DNA from: a virus
Taxonomy: Duplodnaviria > Caudoviricetes
IMG/VR virus record: IMGVR_UViG_3300042924_002983
Coordinates: 1-62,982 of that record
Reading direction: 5' to 3' (one strand)
Length of the DNA: 62,982 nucleotides
Shown: in pieces, positions 11,158-62,982 of the stretch
Numbering within the stretch: the first letter of the stretch is position 1
Layout: the number at the start of each line of letters is the position of its first letter
The notes under the pieces: model-generated
Seen by the model: the letters and a program-made list of their open reading frames with translations, nothing else
Databases searched by the model: none
Told to the model about the DNA's origin: nothing
Translations under genes and position numbers: made by a program

Positions 11158-11708
11158 CAACCAAACGTCTCCTGATCGTTATTGCGCGACCGCAACTGCT
11201 GCGCTTGTAACTGCATCTGGAGCATGCGATCCCTCTCACGCTGCTCAACGGCCAGCCTCCGCAACAGAGCCTCTTGGCGCATGGCCTCCATCTGGGCCTG
11301 ATGCTCCATCCGGCGCTGTTCGCGGGCTTGGGCCACGCGGGAGTCGTTCTCGTCTCGGATGGCACCCGTGACATCACCGATCATGCCCTGCAAGTGCCGA
11401 GCCTGCGCAGAGGCCACCTGTTGCGCCATAGAGGCTGGATTCATCGAAGTGGCTCCTGCGTAGGGCTGCATGTTGAACGGGCGTCTAGCGACCTGCTGGG
11501 GGGCTTCTGGGGCATTTGGCTGCGCGGCGGGTTGTGGTGCAGCTTGGGGCTGGAAGGGATTGCGACCCTGACCCCTGCGGGCGTTGCGAGCAAGGATGAG
11601 CCGCTGAGCCTCGGCGCGGATCTTGGGGTCTGAGCTTTGCAAACGCGCTTTGATGTCGGCATCAAACTCCGCTTCCTCGCCCCACCAGCTAGCATCTGCC
11701 ATTGCCAT
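11157..11708 (-). CDS. Q/A/R-rich hypothetical protein, first gene of the head operon
   Basis: 183 aa, GGAGG Shine-Dalgarno. Confidence 0.7.
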   Translation of the reverse strand: MAMADASWWGEEAEFDADIKARLQSSDPKIRAEAQRLILARNARRGQGRNPFQPQAAPQPAAQPNAPEAPQQVARRPFNMQPYAGATSMNPASMAQQVASAQARHLQGMIGDVTGAIRDENDSRVAQAREQRRMEHQAQMEAMRQEALLRRLAVEQRERDRMLQMQLQAQQLRSRNNDQETFG

Positions 11709-11718
11709 AATCGCCCTC

Positions 11719-11735
11719 CTACTAGGTCAGTGCCC
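11719..11735 (-). promoter_or_regulatory. Late-promoter motif upstream of the 183-aa gene
   Basis: GGGCACTGAC-CTAG-TAG. Confidence 0.55.
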
Positions 11736-12158
11736 CGCGGCGACAGCGGACACGCAGAGGGCTGGAAAACAGGGCTAGAGGGCTGGCGACACGCGGAGGG
11801 ATTCAGCTTTCGGGTTTCGCGAAACGCGGAAAAGGCGACATGTGGGGGCTACGGGGTGCAAAAAATCCAGGGGTGGATATGACTGAATACCGTTACCGAT
11901 CTGGGGGGGAGAGGGGGGTATTCGGCGTGTTGCCTACCCTCCCTCCCTCCCTCTAAACCGTTGACCCGCAAGCACTTAGGTCATTCGTTCCGATTGCAGA
12001 CTGGAAACGGCGGAAGCTTACGTTTTCGTAAGGCGACGTTTTTTCCCGGCGGCCCCTTTGGATGCATCGCCCCCCTATCCAACCGTACACTATCCCTCTC
12101 TTGCAATCCCGTTGCATATCATCCTGGCTATACGCCCGTACAGTACCTGGGCGGTTCA

Positions 12159-12197
12159 ATAAAATAGCCCCCGGGGAAACTAGTCCCCGGGGGCTAT
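12159..12197 (-). terminator. Intrinsic terminator
   Basis: 14-bp perfect stem (atagcccccgggga / tccccgggggctat), T-run on the minus strand, just after the 202-aa gene. Confidence 0.8.
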
Positions 12198-12224
12198 ACG
12201 CTTGCCCACTACTGTACGTCTGGA

Positions 12225-12833
12225 CTATTCGGCCTTGGGGCGCCACGTTATCCGGTTTGCTAGTTCTTCCACAGTCCACGGGGATGGGCTGGGAACCGGG
12301 GCCGGATGGAACGTAGGCCGGACACTATCGGCACCGTAGGCTGTGGCGAGGAGATCGGCCGCGGACTGTTTGCGGGAGAGGCTGGCCAACCTACGGCCGA
12401 TGGGGCCGTTTGGCATGGTCTCCACAGTCTCCCGTGCCATCGTCAAAGCATCCGGCCGGGGGATGGCGGCTTGCAACCTACGCTCACGCATCGCGAGCAT
12501 TTCGGCAGACTGCTGCCGATTTTTGGCCCTACGTTGGCCCGTAAAGCCACGCCATTGAGACCGGCGAGCATATGCCCGTATGGCGTAGTAAGCCCGCATA
12601 TGATCGCCCCGGGCGTAGGGGAGGGAAGTGTAGTCCCGTGCCAGCCAGTGAAGATAAAACTGGCTGGCTGCCTCCTCTGCTGCCTCTTCATCCAAGCCAT
12701 CGTAGCGAGCGGTCCTATATAGCCCCTCTCGCAGGGCCATATGTTGCTCGCCGGTTAGATCGGCGGGGTTGTAGGTCTCACGGGGGAACGCACAAGAGGC
12801 TCCGTTGCCGATTGTCAGTGTGGTGGAACGCAT
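12225..12833 (-). CDS. Hypothetical protein, weakly like sigma region 2
   Basis: GGAGG Shine-Dalgarno and own terminator; AEEAASQFYLHW resembles ECF sigma region 2. Confidence 0.55.
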   Translation of the reverse strand: MRSTTLTIGNGASCAFPRETYNPADLTGEQHMALREGLYRTARYDGLDEEAAEEAASQFYLHWLARDYTSLPYARGDHMRAYYAIRAYARRSQWRGFTGQRRAKNRQQSAEMLAMRERRLQAAIPRPDALTMARETVETMPNGPIGRRLASLSRKQSAADLLATAYGADSVRPTFHPAPVPSPSPWTVEELANRITWRPKAE

Positions 12834-12976
12834 GGGTATCTATCCTCCGTTGGTAACTGCTGGCCAGTATCTGCTGGCCATGGTTGAACTATAACGCTTA
12901 CTATCGGCCGGGGGAAGTGGGTTACCAAAAAAAATCATATCGGCCGGAATATTTTTTTGGGGCTGGGGTCTAATAG

Positions 12977-13433
12977 TAGTTGTGATCGTCAAACGCTCAC
13001 GCGATGCGGAAACGTGTCGCGTGAGCGTGAAACGCACTCCGCGTTTGTTACTCTGGTAACGAATGCGATCAGCGTCTGCCAGGTCTCACACACTGCCCCG
13101 GATTTTGCGGGCAATTGTTACACTGAAAATTCCGTGAAATGTTCGCGGAATTTTCTGTGCGACAAGTCTAATAGTGTGTGTGACGTTTAACGTCGCCCGC
13201 GTGATGGGGAAGCGTGTAGCTTCTGCGCATGCGGGCAGCAAAACCATCCGATACGCGGACGACTCCGCATGCTGTCCTCTGGGCAGCTACCGTGCTTTGC
13301 GCGGTGCCTATTGCAGGCGGATTCGGACAACGCTGGGAGAAGGCATACGAAGCCCGGAGCCGTTTGACTCCCGCCACCAGAAGACCGGCAATAGCTAGTA
13401 CACCAGCCGGGTCCGCGTATCTGATTGTTTTGT
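12977..13433 (+). ncRNA. Putative large structured non-coding RNA / leader
   Basis: Many stems with G-U pairs on the plus strand, GAAA tetraloop, 11-bp long-range helix 13250-13260/13411-13421. Confidence 0.65.
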
Positions 13434-13454
13434 TTCCTTCAATGGAGTTAATCC

Positions 13455-13805
13455 ATGTCAAAGGCCCAGGCTGGTGCTACGGCCATCATGGAGGCTCTGA
13501 GGATTCCTTTGGACAAGTTAAGGCAGGCGGGCAATGTTGCCGTACCTGCTGATGACTTGTGCGAACGGGCCATCCTTGGGTGTCTCAATTCCCGTGATGG
13601 CAGTTGGCGTAAGACTCGCCCGTCGAATGAGGAATCCGAAACGCTTTGGGCGTTGGTGAAGTTTCACCGTTCGGGTGGTTCCTTGTACGGGTGGCCGTGG
13701 TTTGCACCCAAGGATCTGATCGACCCGCTGGATACCCTCGCGGTAGTCCTGCTGGGTGGTCATTCCAATGCGGCAAACGCATGGCAACGTGCGATGCACG
13801 GTTAA
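13455..13805 (+). CDS. Hypothetical protein, first gene of the plus-strand array
   Basis: GGAG Shine-Dalgarno, 116 aa. Confidence 0.75.
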   Translation: MSKAQAGATAIMEALRIPLDKLRQAGNVAVPADDLCERAILGCLNSRDGSWRKTRPSNEESETLWALVKFHRSGGSLYGWPWFAPKDLIDPLDTLAVVLLGGHSNAANAWQRAMHG

Positions 13806-13910
13806 CGGGATTCGATCCCGGGCAGGTGGTGGTGAGGGTGCGATATGACTGCACCCAATAAGGCCAAACAAGCTGCCTGCCCGGGTTCGGTTGCCGTTTC
13901 TGGTAATCGG
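13806..13910 (+). ncRNA. Putative structured intergenic RNA element
   Basis: 14-bp stem 13817-13830/13872-13885 enclosing a GGGTGC/GCACCC hairpin. Confidence 0.5.
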
Positions 13911-13931
13911 TTTCTTTCCATGGAGGTACGT

Positions 13932-14759
13932 ATGGCAATTCGCCGTATACGTACCGCCAAGCCTCTGGGTGTCATTCTGCACCGGGGCGTGTCTCCTTAT
14001 GACGGTTCTCCGTATGTGGTCATCATGCCACTTCGGAATTCCAAGAATAAGAAGACCGGCTCAATGCTTCAGACCTATATTCTTAGGGCTGATATGCATC
14101 CAGTGGTGGCGGTACGCGAAGAACAAGATGGGGCCATCTGTTTCAACTGCCCCATGCGTGGTCTGGTCGGCTTTCCTAAGCGGACACCGGCCAACGCAAA
14201 GCGTAATCCAAAGCGTTGGCGTGCGTGTTATGTCAACGTCGGGCAGGGGCCAGCAATGGTCTACGGTGCCTACATGCGTGGTCGGTACGTTGAATACGAT
14301 CCGATCATGCATGATCAGTACATCCGTGATCGCAAGATCCGGTTCGGTACATACGGGGAGCCGGTGCTGATACCGCTTGCCCTGGTGCAGCATCTGGCCG
14401 GTCTTTCAGACGGCTGGACGGGCTACACCCATGCGTGGAGCAACCTGACCTACGCTCCATACAAGCAGTTCTTCATGGCCAGTGTCCATGGTCTTACGGG
14501 GCCATGGTCACGGGAACATGCGAAGTCTCTTGGCTGGCGTACCTTCCGCACTATGCGGGGAGGTGAGCCTGCTGCTGATGAAGTCTTGTGCCCAGCGTCT
14601 TTGGAGGCTGGCCATCGTCTTAGCTGCCTGACTTGCAGGCTGTGCGACGGTGCCGGTGTCCGCAAGATCGGCTTGGCTATGCGTGATGTGTACATCCCCG
14701 GGCATGGTGGCAAGGCGATTATGACCGCTGTCGCCAACCTGCCCATTCTCCAAGCGTAA
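13932..14759 (+). CDS. GP88-like Cys-rich (Fe-S/radical-SAM-like) phage protein
   Basis: N.KTG, C..CP, CY, RFGTYGEP, WTGYTH.W, C..C.LC motifs; GGAGG before ATG 13932. Confidence 0.65.
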   Translation: MAIRRIRTAKPLGVILHRGVSPYDGSPYVVIMPLRNSKNKKTGSMLQTYILRADMHPVVAVREEQDGAICFNCPMRGLVGFPKRTPANAKRNPKRWRACYVNVGQGPAMVYGAYMRGRYVEYDPIMHDQYIRDRKIRFGTYGEPVLIPLALVQHLAGLSDGWTGYTHAWSNLTYAPYKQFFMASVHGLTGPWSREHAKSLGWRTFRTMRGGEPAADEVLCPASLEAGHRLSCLTCRLCDGAGVRKIGLAMRDVYIPGHGGKAIMTAVANLPILQA

Positions 14760-14768
14760 AGGCGCAGC

Positions 14769-17640
14769 ATGGAAACGATGAATGCGGAGACGATTGGACG
14801 CAAGGCCACAGTGGTCGGCCCAAACCGGCGATCGTTGTCGGACAAGAAACTGCTGTCCGAAATCAAACGGCTGAAGCGTGACTGCGCCAGTTTTGGCGGG
14901 GCCATGCTGCTGGCCGCTTACCAAGCCGATGCCGAGCGGCGTGGCTTAAAGGAGGTATGAGCGTGGAATACACACTGACAGACGCCAGGTTGCGGTCGCT
15001 GAAGGCAGCTGTGACCCGTGCCCAGAACAAGCAGGATTGGCGGGCCGTGATCGCGGCATGCGAGAAGGCAGACCGGACGTTCCGAGAGCAAGGATACCCG
15101 GACTGCTGGTCAGACTTTGAGCGACACAAGGGTGACGCAGAGTTGTCCCTGAAGTTCAACTACCTGCTCATAGATAAGGGGTGCTGGTGACATGGGCAAA
15201 CCAGCCAGATGGACGGCACCCAACGGCAACGTGTGGGAATTCGTACGCACAGAGAAGACCATTGGCGCGGAAGGGTTTACGCCGGGGCATCAAAGGACAA
15301 TGTGGTATCTGGATCGCATCCACAAAGTGACGCGGCCAGACGGCACGGTGTACTACGACTACGAGATGATCGATTGTGGGCAACATCACGGAGACAAGTG
15401 ACCATGTTTATTAAGTATGTGGCCGAGGTGAGGTTTGATGAACTGGGGTGGGTGACTATCCCAGAAGAGTTCGCAACCCGCGAGCAGGCGGATACGCGGG
15501 CCTTTGGCATGGCGTTGACGATGGGCGGGAAGGAAACCCGCGTGATCGAAGTGCCAGACGGCGAGAAGGTGGAGGCGTGACCATGGAATGTGATCAGTGT
15601 GGGTGCGGCGAGCAGGCGTGGAGCGGTGTCTTAGGCGACCTGTTCCATGCCTGCTGCCGTGCATGTGGTTGGGTATACTCTTGTCCACTAGAGGAGGTGA
15701 GTGATGAGTGATGTGCGACTGCCGCTCAATGTGCGGCTCAGTGATCTGAGGACTTTGTTGACATGGAAGGATGGCGATTGCGATCCCGAGATGTATGTGC
15801 GGATCGAATCGGGCCGAGCGTTTCTGTATGCCGTGAAGCGTATGCATGGGCAGAACGGTATCGGCAAGATGGTGTGGAGCCGTGAGATTCCGGTGCTACC
15901 GGGGGAGGATGACTGATGGCTAAGACTGTTGCGGTCCACCTGACCGCTGACGAGATCGATGGTTTGTTCGATGCGTTGGATGACCAAGTTCGCCACTGGG
16001 AGAACTGCGGTGGCAACGATGAGGAGAACGCACGTTATGCCCGCATCATCGCTGGCCTGACTGCGACCGCTCGCAAGTTGGAGAACGCCCGTGACCAGAT
16101 GGAGGACGAGTGATGCCACGCATTGCCGTGTGTCTGAACTATGAGGACAGGGATAACCCTCGCTTCTCAGGTGAGAACGATTACCCGGACTACTGCCGAC
16201 AGTGCTATGCGGACGCAGACGAGGCAGAGATTGCCGCTGAGTACGGCGTATCCGTGGATGCGGTGGACAAGATCGATGACGAACACCCTCAGTATGAGGG
16301 CGAGGACTACACCTGCACCGAGTGTGGCAAGACTCTAACAGCAAAGGATGATTGATGCACAAGATAGCACCAGTGCCCAACCACAATGGGTCACCAGCCG
16401 ATGCGCTGGCCGAGCAGATGATGGAGGTGTGCCATGCCTTGGAGGCAGCGGTCGGTGCCATGTGCCAGTGGCAACCGCATGGCAGGGACTACCAGATTGG
16501 TGGCGACTACCAGGCTGACAGGATTGAGTTCCTGAGACGGGTCGGTTTGTTGGAGGCAATGGCCAAGCAGTACGAACAGGAAGCGATTGCTGTGATGGAA
16601 TACTACAACTGGAAAGAGAGGGTCGGATGAGCAGATACCATGTGAAGGTGGGTGATGCGACGTTCGCCTACGGGTATGACCGTCCGTTGCAGGAATACTT
16701 CTTGCAGAAGCACACGCCGGGGGAGGGTGACTACCCGGACGTTGAGGATCTGGTGGGCAGCTACACCGGCAAGGGCTACGGCACTGCCGGTGAACTGTTG
16801 GAAGCGGTGGCTAAGCATGGCCTGCCGTTGCCGGAAGCGCATATGACTCTGATCAGTTTGGATCTACCCTTTTAAGGAGACAGCTATGAACCGTGACGAT
16901 TGCAAGGTTGGTATGACGGTGTCGTTCGGGCGTGGGCGTGGTGCCCACACCAAGGGCAGGGTGCTGAAGGTCAACGACAAGAAGGCCAAGGTGGAAACGC
17001 TGGAGCAACGCAACAGCAATGCGGCTGGCACCATCTGGAACGTGCCCTACTCCATGCTGACAGCGTGTGAGTTCGTCGCCCCGCAGGCACAGCCCTATCC
17101 CAATGGGCTGACGATCACCGGTGTGAGGTATCTTACAGGCAACGAGTGCCTCAATGAGGGGTGGGACATCGGGCTGTACGACTTCGCGGTCGCACTCACC
17201 CTGTCCGATGGCTCCATGATCTTTGCGTCTGCGGACTATGAGGGTAACGGGCCTGGTGCCCTGTTCGGTCGGATGCGTACCGGCGAGCAGTTCATCCTGT
17301 CCCCAGCACAGAAAGAGGTGGCGGTATGAAGATGAGTAAGAAGTTGGCCGAGGATTTCTGCGATCACGTTTGCGGCGAGGATGCAGAGCTTTACTACGAA
17401 GCCTTCTGTCAGTGGGCGGCGGGGCGCTGCGACCAAGTGGGCACATTCTTCTGGTCCGACTTGGCTATCCAAGTGAGGGACTGCGGCCACAAGCACAGTG
17501 CCCATGCCCTGTATCGGCTGGCGTCCGTGCTGGCGAGCGAACTGAACAGAGAGAAAGACTTCATCGGCAGGATTGGTCGGGCATTCACAGCGTGCGCTGA
17601 GCGGTTCGGCGTGGAAGAGGAAGACATCGTCAGGAGGTAA
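14769..17640 (+). other. Array of 12 small coupled hypothetical genes (starts about 14769, 14957, 15192, 15404, 15583, 15704, 15916, 16113, 16355, 16627, 16886, 17326)
   Basis: Contiguous ORFs with Shine-Dalgarno sequences and stop/start overlaps; several carry CxxC pairs. Confidence 0.8.
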
Positions 17641-17643
17641 GCG

Positions 17644-18222
17644 ATGCGTGTACTGGTAGCGTGTGAGTTCACCGGCACGGTGCGCCGTGCGTTCCGTGAG
17701 CTAGGGCATGATGCATGGAGTTGCGACATCCTGCCTGCCGAGGATGGCGGGCCGCACATACAGGGTGATGTTCGCCAGGTTTTGGGTGACGGGTGGGATC
17801 TGATGGTTGCCCACCCACCATGCACCCACCTTGCGGTCAGTGGTGCCCGCCATTTCCATCGCAAGCAGGTCGAACAGGCCGAGGCGTTGGAGTTTGTGCA
17901 GACGCTGATGGATGCACCCATCCCACGCATAGCACTGGAGAACCCAGTGTCTGTGATCAGCAGTCGGATTCGTAAGCCGGATCAGATCATCCAGCCCTAC
18001 CAATTCGGCCATCCAGAATCCAAGAAGACATGCCTCTGGTTGAAGGGACTCAACCCCCTGCAACCAACGGCTGTGATGCAGATGCGTGGACGGTGGGAGA
18101 ACCAGACTCCCAGTGGACAGAACAAGTTAGGGCCATCACCGGATCGGTGGAAGATTCGGAGCAAGACCTACCCCGGTATTGCCCATGCGATGGCTACCCA
18201 GTGGGGTGTGGAGGATGCGTGA
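17644..18222 (+). CDS. DNA cytosine-C5 methyltransferase-like protein
   Basis: VLVACE..G (motif I-like), HPPC (catalytic PC), ENPV. Confidence 0.75.
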   Translation: MRVLVACEFTGTVRRAFRELGHDAWSCDILPAEDGGPHIQGDVRQVLGDGWDLMVAHPPCTHLAVSGARHFHRKQVEQAEALEFVQTLMDAPIPRIALENPVSVISSRIRKPDQIIQPYQFGHPESKKTCLWLKGLNPLQPTAVMQMRGRWENQTPSGQNKLGPSPDRWKIRSKTYPGIAHAMATQWGVEDA

Positions 18223-21200
18223 TGCCAAAAACGCGGAGCAAGATGGGTAGTTTGTCACGTTCGCAGCATGCCGAGGTTGCTTGGTGCACGGAGGACATCC
18301 AAGACCGGCGACCAGACTGGTCGGCTAAGAGATGTTTTGCGTTCCTTATGAATAACGAGGATGAGATTCAATGCGAGATGATCGAACGTGGATGGGAAGT
18401 TATCAACAACCTTTTGGCAAGGGAGGAATGATGGCACATACACCAGGGCCGTGGGGCATTGTATTTCACTGTGATGTCGAACGCATCCGGCTGAACGGAT
18501 CGACGGTCTACCAAGTGAGCGATGTGACTGACCCGGAGTTCCCATCCGGCACGCCCCGCTACAACTTGGATGACCTGCGATTGATGGCGGCAGCACCTGA
18601 GATGTTGGCCACGCTGCGAATAGCGGCAGATGCACTGGACTACGCACAGGCACAGGTCGATTCGGAGAACGATGCACACAACCTACGTGTACGGTTGGTG
18701 CAGGTAAAGCGAGTGATTGCCAAAGCAGAAGGGAGGGGTGAGTGATGCCCGCAGTGCATATGAGTGAGCATGAGGCCCGCGTTCACATGATCTCGTTACT
18801 GAACCACATGGATGTTGATGGATTGGCGTTGGCCTTAAGCGAGAGCTACCTATTTGAGGACAGGCCGGTGGTGGTGAAGGGGGCGAAGATCGAAAGCTAC
18901 GCCTACCTCAACGGCATGTCTGGCGGCGATAGGCGCGGCGATGTGTACGCATTCGACGGGCTTGCGGACGAGGAGTAGGTTCCTTAACAAGGAGGACAGG
19001 GATGTCTATGCTGGACGTTTGGAAAGACGAGACGATTGAGACTGCCATTCGCCTGTTGGTCAACGCCGAGCGGTTGTTGGAACCGTTCCGTGACCAGGAG
19101 GGTGACTGGGGTAGGGTGTACGAACAGATCCATAAGTTCTTAAAGGAGGAGTGCTGATGGCTTGGCGAATGAACACACCGCCGGACTACGATGGTGGCCC
19201 TCTCAGAGACAGCGACTGGGGCGTGGTCTACAGGGATGAGACTGAACCTACGCTGCCTGAGTACGTCTGCATCTTCTGGCGGGTGCGCGGGGAGGTAGCT
19301 TATGTACGCGGAGGACTGAACTCTTTCTGCCCGTCCACCGCAAAGCCCGCGGATGCGGTGAAGATAGCGATAAAGAAATCCAAGGACTACACCGACACTG
19401 CCACAGACAACATCGTCTGGTGGGGTGTACTGAGAAACAAATAGGAGGAGTGCTGATGAACAAGCTGGCTGACAAGCCGCTGTATGACACGCCGATTGAC
19501 ATGCTGCGGCACATCGTTGAATCGTTCAACAGCTGCAAAGAATCCTTTATGGATGACAAGACGATCCCGCAGTTGATGAACATCTACAACTGCTGGATGC
19601 GTAGTGGCTGGGACTTCTACCCAGACCAGTGGTCACCCAAGCAGGTGAAGGAAGCAATGGATGGGATCGTTCCTGACTGGGACCGCAAAGAGCAGCCGGT
19701 CTTTCACAAGGATCGCAGTGAGACGCGGTTCATTGGGGCGTTTGAGATTATCTGGAAAGGAGAACGCTGATGGTGGCTAAGAGCAGCAAGCGGACACACA
19801 TAATCAACCTGCCTTGCATCGGGATCTGGAGTCGGACGGCTTCGACAGATCCCAGCCCAGGCAACACTCTGGTCGGACTGTGGATTGAGGACAACGGCAA
19901 TCAGAGCATCAGGTTTTTCTGCGCCTACTTCTGCAATGCGGCAGGCGAAGGCGTTGACCCTGACGAGGAGGACTGGACGCACATCACATACCACTGCCGC
20001 CAAGCGGGGGTGGGCAGGGCGTGGCAAGGAGAGATTGAACCGCCCGATTACTGGGCCGAGGCACGGTGGCTTATACCCGAGTGGGGAGGTGAGTGATGAC
20101 GAACGAGAGGTACGCCAAGGCGCTCGCCCGGGTGGAGCGGTCGCCCCGCCTGCGGAAGTACAAGTCCATCGTTATGCAGGACTATGGTGGCAGGCATTGG
20201 GAGTGGGTGACCTATGCCCAGGTGAAAGAGATTGAGTCTTGGGCCAAGCAGATAAAGGAGGACAGTGATGGCTAAGAAGAAAGCAAAGACCAAGCACACG
20301 CGGCAGGACGATGAGGCGGTGACGTTCCTGAGCTACGTGAAGAAGCAGGCACCCAACCTGTACGAACGGTACGCATCGCTTCAGCCCTTTGAGGATGTGA
20401 TCAACGAGTGCTGGGTGAATACCGAAGATGGGTATGTGGGCATCGGGATTGAAACCGGCGCTGGCGTGTGGGCTAGTGGCGACAGGCCGATGTACTACGC
20501 GGAGATCCACTTCGATGAGGTGGTTCTTCAGTTCGACATTGAGTCCGAGGACGAGACGTTCCGCGAGAGCTACTCCACCGACATGGCTGGGCTGTGGTCT
20601 TTCCTGCGTCAGATCCCCAGGCCGATGCATTCCTTCGGTAAGTGGAGGCCCAACTGATGGCTGACGTTGCGGAAGTAAGGGCTGACATCTCAGAGATGCT
20701 GCGTGCCATTCGTATCAACGGGTGCGTGCCAGTTATGCGTGAGGCTTTGCTGTGGTGGCAGTCGTACCTCATTGCCCACCAAGAGAGCGGCCTGTCGGCT
20801 GTAGATAAGCAGGGCTACGAGGTTCTGTATAAGCAGCTGAAGTTCTTGTTGACCGAGGTGTTCCCCGATGAGGAGGGCGGTGATGGACAAGCTAGTTGAG
20901 TTGCGGGATGGGCTGCAGGAATACTCATGCACCTGCATCGCCAATGCGTATGCAGAGATGGGGCAGTACGGTGCTGAGTGGGGAGCGATCAAACATCTGT
21001 ACCTCGTACTGTGTGCGTGGGATGTTCTGGATCGGGAAGTAACCAGGCTAGCGGAGGAGGAGTGATGCGAGACATGTCCAATGACCTGCGGATTGTGCAG
21101 TGGTTTCTGGATCTCCCCAAGTTGCAGGAGATTATGGGCTGGCCGGTCGGTGCCGAGCGTCTTGTCGCCAGTGGGCAGGACATCCATCGCCTGTCCAAGC

Positions 21201-22470
21201 AGGAGCCTGGTGATCCCGTGGCAATAGCCGCGGCGTGGAACAGTCTCGGCGGTGCGCTTGGCCCCAACCTACTGGGCACGCTGATGTCCTGCGATCACTG
21301 GCGGGAGCTTGTGCCCCCGGTGTCTGGCCCAAGCAGCGATGACGAGGAAACTGTGTGGACGGGTGGCGGCAAGAGCGTGGTGGCCCGCTTGGTCTATGAC
21401 AACGGGCGACCGATCAATGTTGTCTTTGAAGTTCGATAGGAGCAACAATGTACAAGGATGTACTGAACGTGCTGCATGTTCTGGCTACCGCTATACTTAT
21501 GTTGTTGGCGGGCCAGTTGAAGGAGATGTGTGTGAAGATACTGGGAGGTGAGTGATGGCTTGGCAACAGATGCCCGCCGATGCAGGGCAGATCGTTGATG
21601 TGCGGTACGACTGCGACTGGGAGACACGCACACTGTACAAGCGTGTTGCCGACCGCAACGAGGGCAGTGTTGAACTGCTGCTTGGACGGATCGTTGACGG
21701 TGAGGATAGGTACGAACCACAGAATGGCGTACTGCCAAAGGTGGAGCGGTGGATTTCAGAGGGAGGTGAGTGATGGCTAAGACATGGGAGTACCGTGGCC
21801 GCGTCATCGAAGAGGACTTTGAATCTTGGGCTGACCCAGGCCGGATGAGGAAGACTCGCACCGGATACATCATCCGCGCAGCAGGCTTTGCCAAGCGTTC
21901 TGTTTACGTTCCGGGAAAGTATCGCACGCTGGTCGAAGCCAAGCGTGCAGTGGATGAAGTCCTTGAAGGAGGGTTTTGGTAATGGCGTTCGCTAAGTACA
22001 GATACATTGCTTTCGACTACGAAGAGGGGCATGCCTACCCGTATGTCTGCACTGCATGGCGCATGGTGGGTGGGATGAATGTCGGGGATCGGTTCACTGA
22101 GCAGGTCGGAGAGGTGATCATCGAAGCCCTGCGTGAGGATGGCATTACGATTGATGTCACGCAGTCTAAACCCGAGGAGGTGAAGTGATGGCTAAGATGC
22201 TGTGCGAGTGCAAGGCTGGTCAGTTCCAAGGCGAGCCTATCGATGAGCAGTTCGCTGCGTTCGATGCACTCGCTCGTCAGTGCGGGTATGCGTCTGGCAT
22301 AGCTGCCGCGAATGAGTGTGTGCTGTGGGGGGATACGGTCGAACAGGCCGTTGCGTTTATGTCCAAGCAACTGGAGGTGAGTGATGGTCGCAATGAGTGA
22401 GACGATGGACTTTCTGATCGGTGGCACCGGGGTGCTGCTGCTGTTGTGGTGGGGTTCTTGGAGGCACTGA
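18222..22470 (+). other. Array of about 18 small coupled hypothetical genes (starts about 18222, 18431, 18745, 19002, 19157, 19456, 19770, 20096, 20268, 20657, 20883, 21065, 21448, 21555, 21773, 21982, 22188, 22384)
   Basis: Contiguous ORFs with GGAGG Shine-Dalgarno sequences and TGATG overlaps. Confidence 0.8.
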
Positions 22471-22472
22471 CC

Positions 22473-23246
22473 ATGCTGTACGGATATGCCCGTGTTTCTA
22501 CGGACAAGCAAGAGAACTCAGCCGATGCCCAGGCTATCCGGCTTAGGGCATACGCTGAGCAGTCGGGCTTGGAGTTTGGAGGCGTGTTCGTAGACGAGGA
22601 TCAGTCGGCATTCCACATTCCATGGCACCAGCGCAGGCAAGGCAGGGCGCTGTGGGACAAGCTCAAGGCCGGGGATGCGGTGGCGTTCTGCACGTTCGAC
22701 CGAGTGTTCCGTTCGGTGCTGGATGCTGCGGTCACTTTAGACAAGTGCAAGGCGCTTGGCGTTCAGCTGCGGTTCCTAGACAACAGCATCGATGTGATGA
22801 CAAGCGAAGGCGAGTTGACGTTCAACGTCCGGTCTTGCGTTGCCCAGTTTGAAAGTCAGATCAGAGGCCAGCGGCAGCGGGAGATCCAGTCCTACCTGCG
22901 CGCAGCCGGTCGCCCGTACGGGAAGTTCCGTCCGTACGGATGGGTGGCCAAGGACAAAGCGTTCGTTGTCTACCGTCCCGAGCGGGAGATCGGTGACATG
23001 GTTGTGGCCATGCGCAAGGCAGGCCGGTCCTTCACGGACATCTGCCTGCACCTGTGCAAGAAGGAACTGCGCAAGCCACCCAACAAGAAGGGTGTCATGG
23101 GGTACTACGGCCTGACAGACACAGTTGCTCTGCATCGGGCAGCGTCAGCTGGATACCCAAGGATCCGGCCAAGACTTTCGCAAGCGCAGTGGCGCGACGA
23201 GATGCAGCGCGTAGAGAAATCTCATGCGACTCAGCCAGCGCTCTGA
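22473..23246 (+). CDS. Serine recombinase (resolvase/invertase catalytic domain plus PYG-containing extension)
   Basis: YGYARVST..Q, FDRVFRS, AQFES, RPYGW. Confidence 0.9.
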   Translation: MLYGYARVSTDKQENSADAQAIRLRAYAEQSGLEFGGVFVDEDQSAFHIPWHQRRQGRALWDKLKAGDAVAFCTFDRVFRSVLDAAVTLDKCKALGVQLRFLDNSIDVMTSEGELTFNVRSCVAQFESQIRGQRQREIQSYLRAAGRPYGKFRPYGWVAKDKAFVVYRPEREIGDMVVAMRKAGRSFTDICLHLCKKELRKPPNKKGVMGYYGLTDTVALHRAASAGYPRIRPRLSQAQWRDEMQRVEKSHATQPAL

Positions 23247-60195: not shown

Positions 60196-62158
60196 TTGGC
60201 GGTCCTTCGGGGGGCGGGCCTGGAGGTGGGGGAGGAGGAGGCGGGACCAAGTAGCGCGACACATCGGTGTTCATCGCCTTGCCCCAGTCCTCCAGGAGCG
60301 CGTTGAACAGTTCCGGCTTCCCGGCCTGCAACAGACCCTGACTGATCGGCGCGAGAATCTGCATCGCGTTGGTGATGTTCTCAATGCGAGTGGCGACGTT
60401 AGGCTTCTTCACAGACCCAGCCTCAACGCGGTACGAATACTCACGCACAACTGAATCCGGGTCTTCGCCTTGAACGTGCATCTGCCATGCCTGCGCCGCC
60501 ATAGGGCCAAGCAGCGGAGCAACGTCCTGCGGTCCAATCAACCAGCGGGCGAGAAGGGCTTCCTTGCGCGCGACCAGCGACAGAGCGTCTTCCAGAATGT
60601 TTGCATAATCGTCCGGCCTCACCGAAATCTGCTCAGCCTTCACGGTCGCTTCTGCAGCTGATCTGAAGGAATTTCTGGTCATACCGTAAATGAGTTCTGT
60701 CAAACCCACTCGCCGGTCGAACAGCGCGGTGACCTCAGAGATGATCTGGTACATGTCCGAGGTGACCCCCGGCATCTGGAAGACCGAGATCACATCATTG
60801 ACCGACCGGCCGATAGCTTCCGAGATCTCTACGATCTTGAACCCGCCCTCGTCCTTCTCCAGGATCTTGGCCTTGAGGTCCGGGTCTGCTGACTTGGCTA
60901 CACCGATCAGCACCTGCGCGCTGGTGGCAATGCGCGTGGCGAGGAAGCTCATCGCCCAGTTGATGAATCGAAGCTCACCGATACCGGGACGAATGATAGA
61001 GATGGGCCAGCTGTACCCTGGCTTGCCGTGCCAAGCGAGCGGGGTGAACGGCCAGCCGCCTGGTTCTGCCCAAAAGGGAATGGGCCACTGCGCCGCCATG
61101 AACATCGACGGTGCAACGCCAGTCTCGTCTACTTCTTCCTGCAGCATCGCTTCAGGCATGTTCAGTGGGAAATCAATTCCCTCTGCCACCGCGATATAGC
61201 AGTTGGGACCGAACGCATCGAACTTGCCGCGGAGGTCTTTGTCGGCGTTCTTGAGCCGGTCGCCAAACCCTGTCTTGGAGTAAACCTCCCAGTAGACGAT
61301 GAGGTCGTTGGTCTTGCCCAGCTTCTTCTTGTATTCAAAGCCACGCTCGTTGTTGTCGCCGCGTGACGAGTAGCTCTCCATGTGACCCTTTAGGTCTTCA
61401 CGGGAGAGACCGAACTTCGCCGCTACCTCGTCCACAGGCTGGACCCGCTTGCGCGCTGCCCATCGGATGTCCTCAAACTCATCGGCATCGGGATCCCAGA
61501 CGAGGTTGTCGATGGAGTCGTAGAAGCTCCCGGCCATCTTCAGCTGCGAGCCGGGGGGCGAGTAAAGCTCATGCCACCAGACGCCTGCACCCTTAATGAA
61601 CGCTTCCTCCACCACCTTCCGCGAGTGCTTCTTAAGATCTAATTCATTCGGGGTGTAGTTGAGGTAGTCTTCCAACAGCCTGGAGACGAGCTTGCGCCGC
61701 TCCAGCATCATCTGCTGATCCTGCAAGCCCTGCTGGTACATCTGCATGCCGGGGTCTGGCATCATCACTGGCTGGCCATCGGGTCCAATGATTGGCTGAC
61801 CGTCCGGCCCCATGGCTGGCACTGGGGGCTGGGGCTGGATGCCAAGGAGTGCTGGCCCGATGATGGGATACTCCTTGGGGGTCACCGCGCGGTTGGGGTT
61901 CCGGTGGTGGATCACCGCGGTAAAGAGGCGCACGGCCTCCCACACACGGTTGACCTGCATGCGGAATGCAGGAGGAGTCATGCCCTTGTTGTAGCCACGC
62001 TCCCCACGGGCGTACCCATCTTTCCACATGAAATCTGGGTCGCCAGCGAAGAAGTTCATCGCCTCGTCACCGTCCTCTGTGAACGGACGCTTATGGGCGG
62101 TGGCCTGCTTAATGCACTCAAGCCAGCGGGCGACGATTGGACGAAGCGGTTTATCCAT
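60179..62158 (-). CDS. Portal protein
   Basis: About 660 aa after terminase; RSAAEA motif; P22/T7-like size and position. Confidence 0.8.
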   Translation of the reverse strand: MDKPLRPIVARWLECIKQATAHKRPFTEDGDEAMNFFAGDPDFMWKDGYARGERGYNKGMTPPAFRMQVNRVWEAVRLFTAVIHHRNPNRAVTPKEYPIIGPALLGIQPQPPVPAMGPDGQPIIGPDGQPVMMPDPGMQMYQQGLQDQQMMLERRKLVSRLLEDYLNYTPNELDLKKHSRKVVEEAFIKGAGVWWHELYSPPGSQLKMAGSFYDSIDNLVWDPDADEFEDIRWAARKRVQPVDEVAAKFGLSREDLKGHMESYSSRGDNNERGFEYKKKLGKTNDLIVYWEVYSKTGFGDRLKNADKDLRGKFDAFGPNCYIAVAEGIDFPLNMPEAMLQEEVDETGVAPSMFMAAQWPIPFWAEPGGWPFTPLAWHGKPGYSWPISIIRPGIGELRFINWAMSFLATRIATSAQVLIGVAKSADPDLKAKILEKDEGGFKIVEISEAIGRSVNDVISVFQMPGVTSDMYQIISEVTALFDRRVGLTELIYGMTRNSFRSAAEATVKAEQISVRPDDYANILEDALSLVARKEALLARWLIGPQDVAPLLGPMAAQAWQMHVQGEDPDSVVREYSYRVEAGSVKKPNVATRIENITNAMQILAPISQGLLQAGKPELFNALLEDWGKAMNTDVSRYLVPPPPPPPPGPPPEGPPNGNPG

Positions 62159-62982
62159 GGGCACTCCTATTAGCTAGTGTCCTTACTTGCCCCTGCGGGC
62201 TTCCAAGTCGGCTACCTTCCGCTCCAAAAGCGCCACTTTCTCGGCCAGAATCGCATTCTTCTGAGGCTTGTGTTCCCAGAAGCCGTAGTCCTTCCACGCC
62301 TGGAACTCGTTCACGCCGGGGTCGGTGACATGGTGGACCGACTGCTTCTCATTCCCGCCGTAGCCGGGGGCCAAGGCCCACAGGGTGAGGGTCCGCTGGC
62401 TCACCTTGGTGACCAAGGCCGGGATGCACTCAGCGCCCTCATGGGCACGGAAGAACACCCAGTCACCAAGCTCAGCGGTCGGCATTACGTAATCGCTCAT
62501 CTTTGTCTACTCCCCATTGGCCCGAGAACAATGCAGTTGTCTTCGGACGACTGCTGCCTGCGGCGTTTATCCGCGAGGTAACGCACCCACCATGGATCGG
62601 GGCCATAGGTCTTTGGCGGTGCGTGGTATTTTGGTTCGTACGCGCAGAGGTACTCCACGCTCTGGATGGCGTGGACTTCCCCGCGGCTCTGCGGCTCGTC
62701 GGTCACGTAGACCTGTCCGTTGACGCTCGTCGTCTTTTTCCGGTAGCGGCGGATCTCGCGCATCAGATTCGGACACGCACCATCCAAGAACTTCAGCTTG
62801 GTCGAACCGTCTCCCCGGATGTGGAGCATCTGCCGGACGAGCGCCGTGCGGGCCGGGATGTCGTCGGAGCCGGGGATGAAGCCGTACCCGCTCATCTGCG
62901 ACTTGATGCCGCGCTTCTTCAGTTCCTCTGAGTACAGTTCATGGGGAAGACGGCCCGAGCCTAAGTCTCTGAGCATGCCGCC
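61786..62982. repeat. Terminal redundancy, right copy (portal 5' end, 105-aa gene, terminase 3' end)
   Basis: Begins caatgattggctgaccgtcc, like base 1. Confidence 0.95.

Follow-up and report, generated by a model that had tools for sequence, protein, structure and literature searches.

The early leaders of lambda-type phages carry nut sites (boxA and boxB) and an RNase III-sensitive N leader, and HK022 carries put RNA elements. The lambda boxA consensus is CGCTCTTTA and lies upstream of the boxB hairpin; the core of the RfaH ops/JUMPStart element, GGCGGTAG, lies on the non-template strand of the leader. In prophages, hammerhead ribozymes flank genes, one of them 13 nt upstream of an early-gene start codon, and transcript processing has been proposed as their function (Perreault et al. 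2011, PMC3088659). Here we analyze positions 12977-13433 of a tailed phage, represented by the complete IMG/VR virus record of 62,982 bases (the window). The stretch sits in a 621-nt divergent intergenic region (12834-13454) between p202 on the minus strand and p116 on the plus strand. It is probably a composite 5′ regulatory and leader region of the plus-strand early operon, and not one RNA gene. Its parts are two promoter-like units, a hairpin-rich spacer between them (module B), a short conserved element (module C) and a structured insertion (module D), listed in Table 1. An earlier interpretation made from the letters alone (the sequence-only reading) had placed the stretch at the head of the plus-strand gene array; this position is borne out, and a leader of the early transcript fits.

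Module C resembles the lambda and HK022 leaders in having a promoter-proximal conserved hairpin and a linear element within an early-operon leader, in belonging to an operon with terminator-like hairpins between its genes, and in the long structured leader that runs from the element to the first start codon. Unlike in lambda nut, the hairpin comes before the linear element, there is one copy per genome, the first gene after the element varies, and an N-like protein is not among the recognised products. Within one mismatch, boxA CGCTCTTTA occurs six times in the window and not at all in 12834-13454. A short invariant element rich in G, placed in a long operon's 5′ leader, is common to module C and RfaH ops, and GCGGGCAG loosely resembles GGCGGTAG; no copy of GGCGGTAG within one mismatch was found on the plus strand of 12834-13454.

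Data and Methods

Relatives were gathered in three sets: 28 loci fetched via the neighbouring conserved protein p304, 37 stretches fetched via a 16-nt motif (about 20 of them true relatives), and 26 metagenome loci fetched via alignment of p116. Together they make about 90 loci and metagenome contigs, and counts of contexts below refer to 47 distinct contexts; single relatives are given L numbers where they must be told apart. INPHARED phages gave no blastn match to 12834-13454, and GTDB genome contigs contained no p304 relative and no match to the C-element pattern. The stretch is present in 24 DNA sequencing runs from lake or freshwater metagenomes; the family is one of freshwater phages of ~60 kb. 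Structure was scanned in 1256 GC-corrected 200-nt windows. Membership in the type II hammerhead family (RF02276) was judged by CUGAUGA and GAAA cores, a cleavage triplet, closed stems I and III with an open stem II, and a score of at least 37 bits.

Independent exchange of modules

The modules have been swapped independently, with borders near 12930, 13215, 13243 and 13427. In both blastn and alignment, one relative (L005; p116 99% and p202 95% identical) is 88% identical over 12842-13243 and unrelated over 13244-13427, and another (L002; p116 100% identical) is 98% identical over 13212-13454 and unrelated over 12930-13211, where the divergent gene is also different. A third (L068) has a third upstream part joined to an identical 13244-13433 and p116. 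Contigs from four lake-water runs have their breaks or joins at these places too: 12930 is joined to 13217, and in a contig 186 other bases replace 13243-13427. There are thus at least four modules, in the order promoter-like unit, B, second promoter-like unit, C and D.

It is because these parts are exchanged independently among near relatives and lake metagenomes that we do not read the stretch as one RNA of ~450 nt, the form in which the sequence-only reading had cast it. One large, junction-rich structured noncoding RNA (a decoy, a scaffold or an antitermination RNA) that evolves as a unit would agree with the very low folding energy over the whole stretch, with the lack of an Rfam family and with the lack of a conserved open reading frame (ORF). 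We nevertheless consider it very improbable. Its parts have separate evolutionary histories, only 45 nt are conserved family-wide, long-range pairs occur inside B and inside D and not between modules, and a -10-like box is repeated inside the stretch. The tgatcg/cgatca helix that had been thought to close the first two hairpins into a junction is unused in the minimum free energy (MFE) fold, and T>G at 12986, uncompensated, disrupts it both in the nearest relative and in metagenome contigs. For genome scans this carries a warning: an exceptional folding score over 450 nt can arise from several adjacent unrelated elements.

Two other claims of the sequence-only reading, that no credible ORF covers the stretch and that no known RNA family is recognisable in it, agree with our searches. 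ORFs of 74, 97 and 107 aa cross the region, and none has a ribosome-binding site or is conserved. Rfam 15 gave no match at gathering score in the whole window. At E ≤ 10, 29 matches were obtained in 11650-13550, all under the gathering scores and mostly to hairpin (microRNA-type) models, with no ribozyme family among them.

Folding and strand preference

All hairpins and helices named in the sequence-only reading are present (Table 1), and the structure is as exceptional as it had suggested. The plus strand of the stretch folds to an MFE of -218.9 kcal/mol (z = -8.76), and none of 100 dinucleotide shuffles was as good. The 12 most structured plus-strand windows in the scan all lie within 12851-14150; 13051-13250 ranks first on the plus strand (z = -4.42), and these windows come no higher than 10th (10th-17th) on the minus strand. 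Strong plus-strand structure extends through p116 up to the start of p304. Seven hairpins with at least 12 contiguous pairs exist in the window, three of them in 12993-13155, and the 16-bp hairpin at 12993-13028 is the longest contiguous hairpin of all. G-T or T-G pairs on the plus strand make up 19 of the 160 pairs in the MFE fold.

Selection for plus-strand structure, proposed in the sequence-only reading for the whole stretch, agrees with a clear plus-strand advantage in its first part and with none in its last. Over 12977-13185 the plus strand folds to -99.4 kcal/mol (z = -8.40) and the minus strand to -84.1 (z = -6.61), so that the plus strand is favoured by 15 kcal/mol. Over 13232-13439 the values are -91.5 (z = -4.84) and -90.8, respectively, with no plus advantage. 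Among relatives (computed for 12 of the 47 contexts), folding z-scores peak between -180 and -60 from the conserved decamer of module C, with means at -60 of -4.6 on the plus strand and -3.4 on the minus strand. An intrinsic-terminator scan found no site inside 12977-13433; it flagged 13887-13910 and two sites at 12502-12519. The closing helix of module D ends in TTGTTTTGTTT but, unlike a terminator, encloses 150 nt.

Module C, a conserved leader element

Module C, 45 nt long, is the only part of the stretch conserved family-wide. Its decamer ATGCGGGCAG is invariant in all 44 aligned relatives while the flanks diverge freely, and a covariance model of C matched 50 of 52 sources, with a single hit in each that lay on the gene strand. 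A Shine-Dalgarno (SD) sequence and a start codon follow within 45 nt in 41 of the 47 contexts (the six exceptions include three carriers of module D), and the first gene after C varies among relatives.

Support for the hairpin of module C, drawn from comparison of sequences, is moderate. When 49 variants were folded singly the mean z was -1.5, with z < -1 in 61% and z < -2 in 31%, and stems of differing sequence recur at this place (AAGC/GCUU, AGUAA/UUACU, GUAACC/GGUUAC and CAGUAG/CUACUG). Where wobble pairs occur, a 5′ G pairs with a 3′ U; GU is found in 19, 13 and 15 of the 44 relatives at three pairs. If the hairpin matters, the many G(5′)-U(3′) pairs argue for plus-strand RNA.

Module C is best read as an undescribed conserved cis-element. 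Because of its position, its invariance and the terminator-like hairpins downstream, its most likely role would be that of a nut/put-like elongation signal or of a translational operator. If this holds, ATGCGGGCAG and its hairpin form a compact invariant leader signal that is in no RNA family library and comes with about 50 natural variants.

We also considered an anti-SD switch and rejected it: the 3′ arm of the hairpin pairs with the real SD sequence no better than shuffled arms do (mean z = -0.16, n = 36). The 5′ arm is enriched in SD-like 4-mers (23 of 47, compared with a background of 10%) and the 3′ arm in anti-SD-like 4-mers (16 of 47, compared with 9%). Elsewhere in the genome, a decamer-related 11-mer on the minus strand at ~37529 lies within ordinary coding-like sequence, and CGGGCAG is not enriched (21 found, 18.4 expected). 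In three distant relatives a second exact (C/T)ATGCGGGCAG occurs inside the p116-type gene, ~95-120 nt downstream of the leader copy (L085:1530-1583, L091:1517-1570 and L093:592-645).

Module D, an insertion before p116

Module D is a lineage-specific insertion between C and the ribosome-binding site of p116. Its closing helix begins within the conserved GGGCAGCAAAA and stops 17 nt short of the p116 start codon, and it encloses at least four hairpins: 13271-13287, 13289-13307, 13387-13410 and one long imperfect hairpin between. It was found in three of the 47 contexts (this phage, L002 and L068) at 99-100% identity, is single-copy in the window, and has orthologous copies only in L002/L029/L034/L059 and in L068. 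Two substitutions are seen: 13249 C>A in L002, which replaces a C-T mismatch in the closing helix with an A-T pair, and 13279 C>A, which falls in a loop.

Elsewhere in the family a small ORF usually comes after C; ahead of the next gene there then stands a type II hammerhead in some contexts and a conserved terminator-like hairpin in others. The hammerhead motif is present in 13 of the 47 contexts, and a terminator-like hairpin follows C in four. Against Hammerhead_II (RF02276), L024 scored 39.0 bits (gathering score 37), and among 11 further sources seven scored 33.8-37.4 bits (L080 37.4, the other six 33.8-35.1 and below the cut-off). Rfam run at gathering score on 18 related loci gave no match, the family's hammerheads scoring at or just below the cut-off.

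The hammerhead carriers are L017, L018, L019, L024, L025, L070, L073, L074, L078, L080-L082 and L084. In these, stem II starts at the stop codon (TAG|GCC GAAAC...) of the small ORF, which has a DHWDALW-like motif, and 10-15 nt separate the end of the hammerhead from the next gene's ribosome-binding site; most have scores slightly under the Rfam cut-off. This context, between the first small ORF and the next gene, is as described in PMC3088659. In L005, L006, L022 and L051 a conserved hairpin, AACCGCCAACCC..CUGCGGG..CUACGGUUUUCAUU, with a T-rich tail stands ~150-175 nt after the decamer. It is terminator-like, lies directly 5′ of the ribosome-binding site of the next gene, and shows compensatory changes between L006 and L022 (UA to CU and UA to GA in the stem).

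Module D shares with the type II hammerheads (RF02276; PMC3088659) a place directly 5′ of a ribosome-binding site, here that of p116. It could do the hammerhead's job as a processing RNA, newly self-cleaving or nuclease-guiding, and give the p116 message its own 5′ end. The closed multi-hairpin domain with its low folding energy is consistent with this, and both substitutions fit the fold, one of them repairing a mismatch. New ribozyme classes have reportedly been found (by Weinberg and colleagues in 2015) by searching beside known ones in such contexts. However, unlike a hammerhead, D has no catalytic core: a regular-expression search found no CUGAUGA/GAAA core in it, the window has no RF02276 match at gathering score, and 11650-13550 has no match to this or any other Rfam ribozyme family even at E ≤ 10. 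No divergent homologue was found in the ~90 loci, there is no strand asymmetry, and D might just as well be a neutral insertion or a terminator-like block. We therefore think a processing role for D quite improbable.

A broader claim joins three parts: that RNA cassettes are exchanged at the stretch between C and the next gene, that D is a new self-processing or nuclease-recruiting RNA replacing the type II hammerhead of relatives, and that AUGCGGGCAG with its hairpin is a new antitermination signal, factor-dependent or factor-independent, of a widespread family of freshwater phages. Taken jointly, these seem to us unlikely.

Module D might also be a small gene, decayed or unrecognised, or else neutral debris left by illegitimate recombination, its fold being incidental. 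The stretch after C in relatives normally starts with a small ORF, and D itself is rare and recent. A one-frame ORF (13174-13398; G+C at third codon positions 0.68) crosses D in the window and in L002. This ORF, however, lacks both a ribosome-binding site and a plausible start, the frame opened in L068 is another one, and the ORF would read through the invariant decamer, where 44 sequences show no synonymous variation. The fold itself (z = -4.84) and its 27-nt closing helix, which borders exactly on C and on the ribosome-binding-site region, also speak against debris, and we hold this origin to be quite doubtful.

Module D also resembles miniature inverted-repeat transposable elements (MITEs) and IS200-605-type palindromic elements: it is ~200 nt long, has 27-nt terminal inverted arms that are 85% complementary, and is present or absent between close relatives. 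Unlike a MITE, it is single-copy and absent from the fetched loci other than the orthologous carriers, it has no evident target-site duplication or flanking direct repeat, and its arms overlap the conserved flank.

In our best reading, module D would be a lineage-specific RNA cassette whose thermodynamically marked structure is likely to be real. It could act as a processing element, a stabiliser or an attenuator, or be a neutral insertion. If this reading holds, hammerhead, terminator-like hairpin and D make a natural series upstream of one gene family. Such a series would be a ready comparison for the role of self-cleaving ribozymes in early transcripts of phages, a question not yet settled (Perreault et al. 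2011, PMC3088659).

Promoter-like units and module B

The -10-like box GTCTAATAGT occurs exactly twice in the window, at 12968 and 13166, each time after an A/T-rich palindrome. The arrangement in relatives is alike, often with tandem units: a palindrome of an A-tract and a T-tract around CCGG, then a G-rich spacer and a TA-rich box, followed by 150-200 nt of hairpins with recurring ACACTGG and ATGCGATCAG and then by a second unit. Tandem duplicated units are present in metagenome loci. Strict perfect A/T palindromes are found in 14 of the 47 contexts only, and tract counts were used instead. A T-tract of at least 4 occurs at -125 to -50 from the decamer in 38 contexts, an A-tract at most 30 nt upstream of the decamer in 25, and a TAnnnT box at -80 to -38 in 30. 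Two features that the sequence-only reading had drawn as hairpins are A/T-rich palindromes that stand before a -10-like box in most relatives, and they are more likely to be promoter or operator elements at the DNA level. Its 24-bp hairpin, in particular, probably works as DNA and not as a hairpin in RNA. Transcription would start at these units, with the palindromes acting on DNA.

Module B carries ATGCGATCAG at 13063-13072 and ACACTG at 13090 and 13120. It is common to one other contig only (L005/L030/L055; 96% identity), and in L005 an apical G-C pair of a module B hairpin is lost on both sides. In the sub-family with homologous B (five sequences, four distinct) the consensus hairpin retains 23 pairs. 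Pair 35-46 is GC, UG or AU, many GC-to-GU and AU-to-GU changes occur, and double changes are seen at one of 34 pairs among the four distinct sequences. On these comparisons module B shows signs of selection for plus-strand pairing.

A model of the leader and the evidence against it

What was observed comprises the structures with their statistics, the borders between modules, the conserved sequence of C and the hammerheads of relatives; from these we infer the functional roles in the following order. An A/T-rich palindrome with a -10-like box would stand back-to-back with the start region of the divergent p202. The upstream unit would transcribe module B, ~190 nt of very stable hairpins with plus-strand-specific wobble pairs that would probably serve as 5′-end stabilisers, RNase processing sites or protein-binding hairpins. 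After a second palindrome and -10-like box would come module C, with its hairpin and the invariant AUGCGGGCAG placed, family-wide, immediately before the first ribosome-binding site. A trans-acting factor would recognise module C and govern either transcript elongation past the terminator-like hairpins further downstream or the translation of the first gene. Module D would have been inserted, as a self-closing structure, at a hot spot of recombination.

Several results weigh against this model. The trans-acting factor read into C is purely postulated. No RNA run on record contains the stretch. A sigma-70 consensus scan found no promoter in 12500-14000, so the label "promoter" used here follows from position and repetition. 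Covariation among homologues, which the sequence-only reading had named as a check, is weak in the C hairpin: eight of 12 pairs show double changes, but 64.8% of the alignment cells are paired compared with 62.4% after shuffling, and nine of 500 shuffles reach the observed value. RNAalifold returned no consensus hairpin from the C alignment, and about nine of the 49 variants have no clear hairpin. The fold of D rests on thermodynamics and the two substitutions, without divergent homologues.

The folding of the opposite strand belongs with these results. The sequence-only reading had also named z-scores on both strands as a check, and the reverse strand of 12977-13433 folds nearly as far below its shuffles as the plus strand (MFE = -197.8 kcal/mol, z = -7.70). 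The minus-strand folds of 12977-13185 and 13232-13439 are likewise far below shuffles, and palindromic DNA could explain part of this. The hairpins might then act as DNA: operator palindromes bound by phage regulators, promoters formed by cruciforms or single-stranded DNA hairpins, or a replication origin with an A/T-rich unwinding element. The divergent intergenic location would suit such elements, as would the A/T-rich palindromes, which stand at -35/UP or operator positions and recur with different sequences beside different divergent genes. However, plus-strand windows take ranks 1-12 of 1256 and minus-strand windows do not, the noncanonical pairs of the MFE fold are G-T on the plus strand, and the wobble-rich conserved hairpins would give A-C mismatches on the other strand. 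The replication genes lie ~20 kb from the structured stretch. Overall, DNA-level hairpins are unlikely as the explanation of the stretch, and the composite leader remains our preferred reading.

Flanking genes and neighbouring elements

The features of the region are collected in Table 1.

Table 1 Position and strand of features in and around the divergent intergenic region of the window
Feature	Positions	Strand	Description
Intrinsic terminator after p202	12164-12197	-	14-bp GC-rich hairpin, then T run
p202	12225-12833	-	Divergent gene; heads minus-strand structural gene array
Upstream promoter-like unit	12925-12977	+	A/T-rich palindrome arms 12925-12935/12951-12961, G-rich spacer, GTCTAATAGT at 12968-12977
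Module B	12977-13165	+	Hairpin-rich spacer between promoter-like units; 16-bp GAAA and 12-bp hairpins
GAAA-capped hairpin	12993-13028	+	16 bp; two adjacent wobble pairs
Hairpin	13040-13067	+	12 bp; two wobble pairs
Stem	13083-13094/13173-13184	+	Inverted repeat; encloses downstream promoter-like unit
Downstream promoter-like unit	13115-13175	+	A/T-rich palindrome core 13125-13155, second GTCTAATAGT at 13166-13175
Hairpin with 24-nt arms	13115-13165	+	14-bp core 13125-13155
Stem	13195-13203/13228-13236	+	MFE fold
Module C	13197-13241	+	Hairpin and decamer ATGCGGGCAG (13229-13238); inner stem 13208-13213/13219-13224, outer stem 13195-13203/13228-13236
Module D	13244-13433	+	Closed multi-hairpin domain; closing arms 13234-13260/13411-13437; fold z = -4.84
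Long-range helix	13250-13260/13411-13421	+	Extends to 27-nt arms 13234-13260/13411-13437, 85% complementary; four or more inner hairpins in MFE fold
p116	13455-13805	+	First early gene; GGAG ribosome-binding site 13444-13447
Second conserved structured spacer	13806-13931	+	Long hairpin CCCGGGCAGG...CCTGCCCGGG, then hairpin 13887-13910

For the protein p116 no relative was found in Pfam, PHROG or PDB, and the first genes of relatives, which vary, are also without a known family. In the spacer after p116, the hairpin at 13887-13910 is terminator-like and wobble-rich, with a T-rich tail and four G-T wobble pairs on the plus strand. It is kept in 26 of 26 distinct relatives (TTCGGYTGCCGTT...GGAGGTGCGT) and stands directly before GGAGGT and the ATG at 13932. 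This ATG is probably the true start of p304, and the start at 13845 of the annotated-length ORF is probably wrong.

Neither Pfam nor PHROG places the divergent p202 in a family. Among its ESM Atlas neighbours is a cluster labelled sigma-70 family (score 0.95), and a Foldseek search with a poor AlphaFold model (predicted local distance difference test score 64) returned nothing at E ≤ 0.001 and scattered fragments of extracytoplasmic-function (ECF) sigma factors at E = 1-4. A sigma-like regulator is a weak lead suggested by these similarities. Relatives have different divergent genes in this place (180-420 aa). A tandem direct repeat, GTAACTGCTGGCCA / GTATCTGCTGGCCA, lies immediately upstream of where p202 starts, at 12853-12880; it contains the palindrome TGGCCAG...CTGGCCA and is possibly an operator. 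On the minus strand, a noncoding stretch of 516 nt (11709-12224) follows p202 and includes its terminator, ahead of the structural gene array; it has a hairpin at ~11899-11956 and G-rich repeats (GGGAGGGAGGGAGGG), and may be a late promoter and leader.

The minus strand has weak matches to terminase, portal, major head and tail proteins, and a helicase and a PD-(D/E)XK protein lie in one minus-strand block. The plus-strand array (13455-23246) consists mostly of small genes, the last encoding a serine recombinase. The last 1197 bases of the window (61786-62982) repeat the first 1197 (1-1197) at 95.6% identity (1144 matches), a sign of either a terminal repeat that has diverged or an assembly wrap-around joining two strains; one genome unit measures ~61.8 kb.

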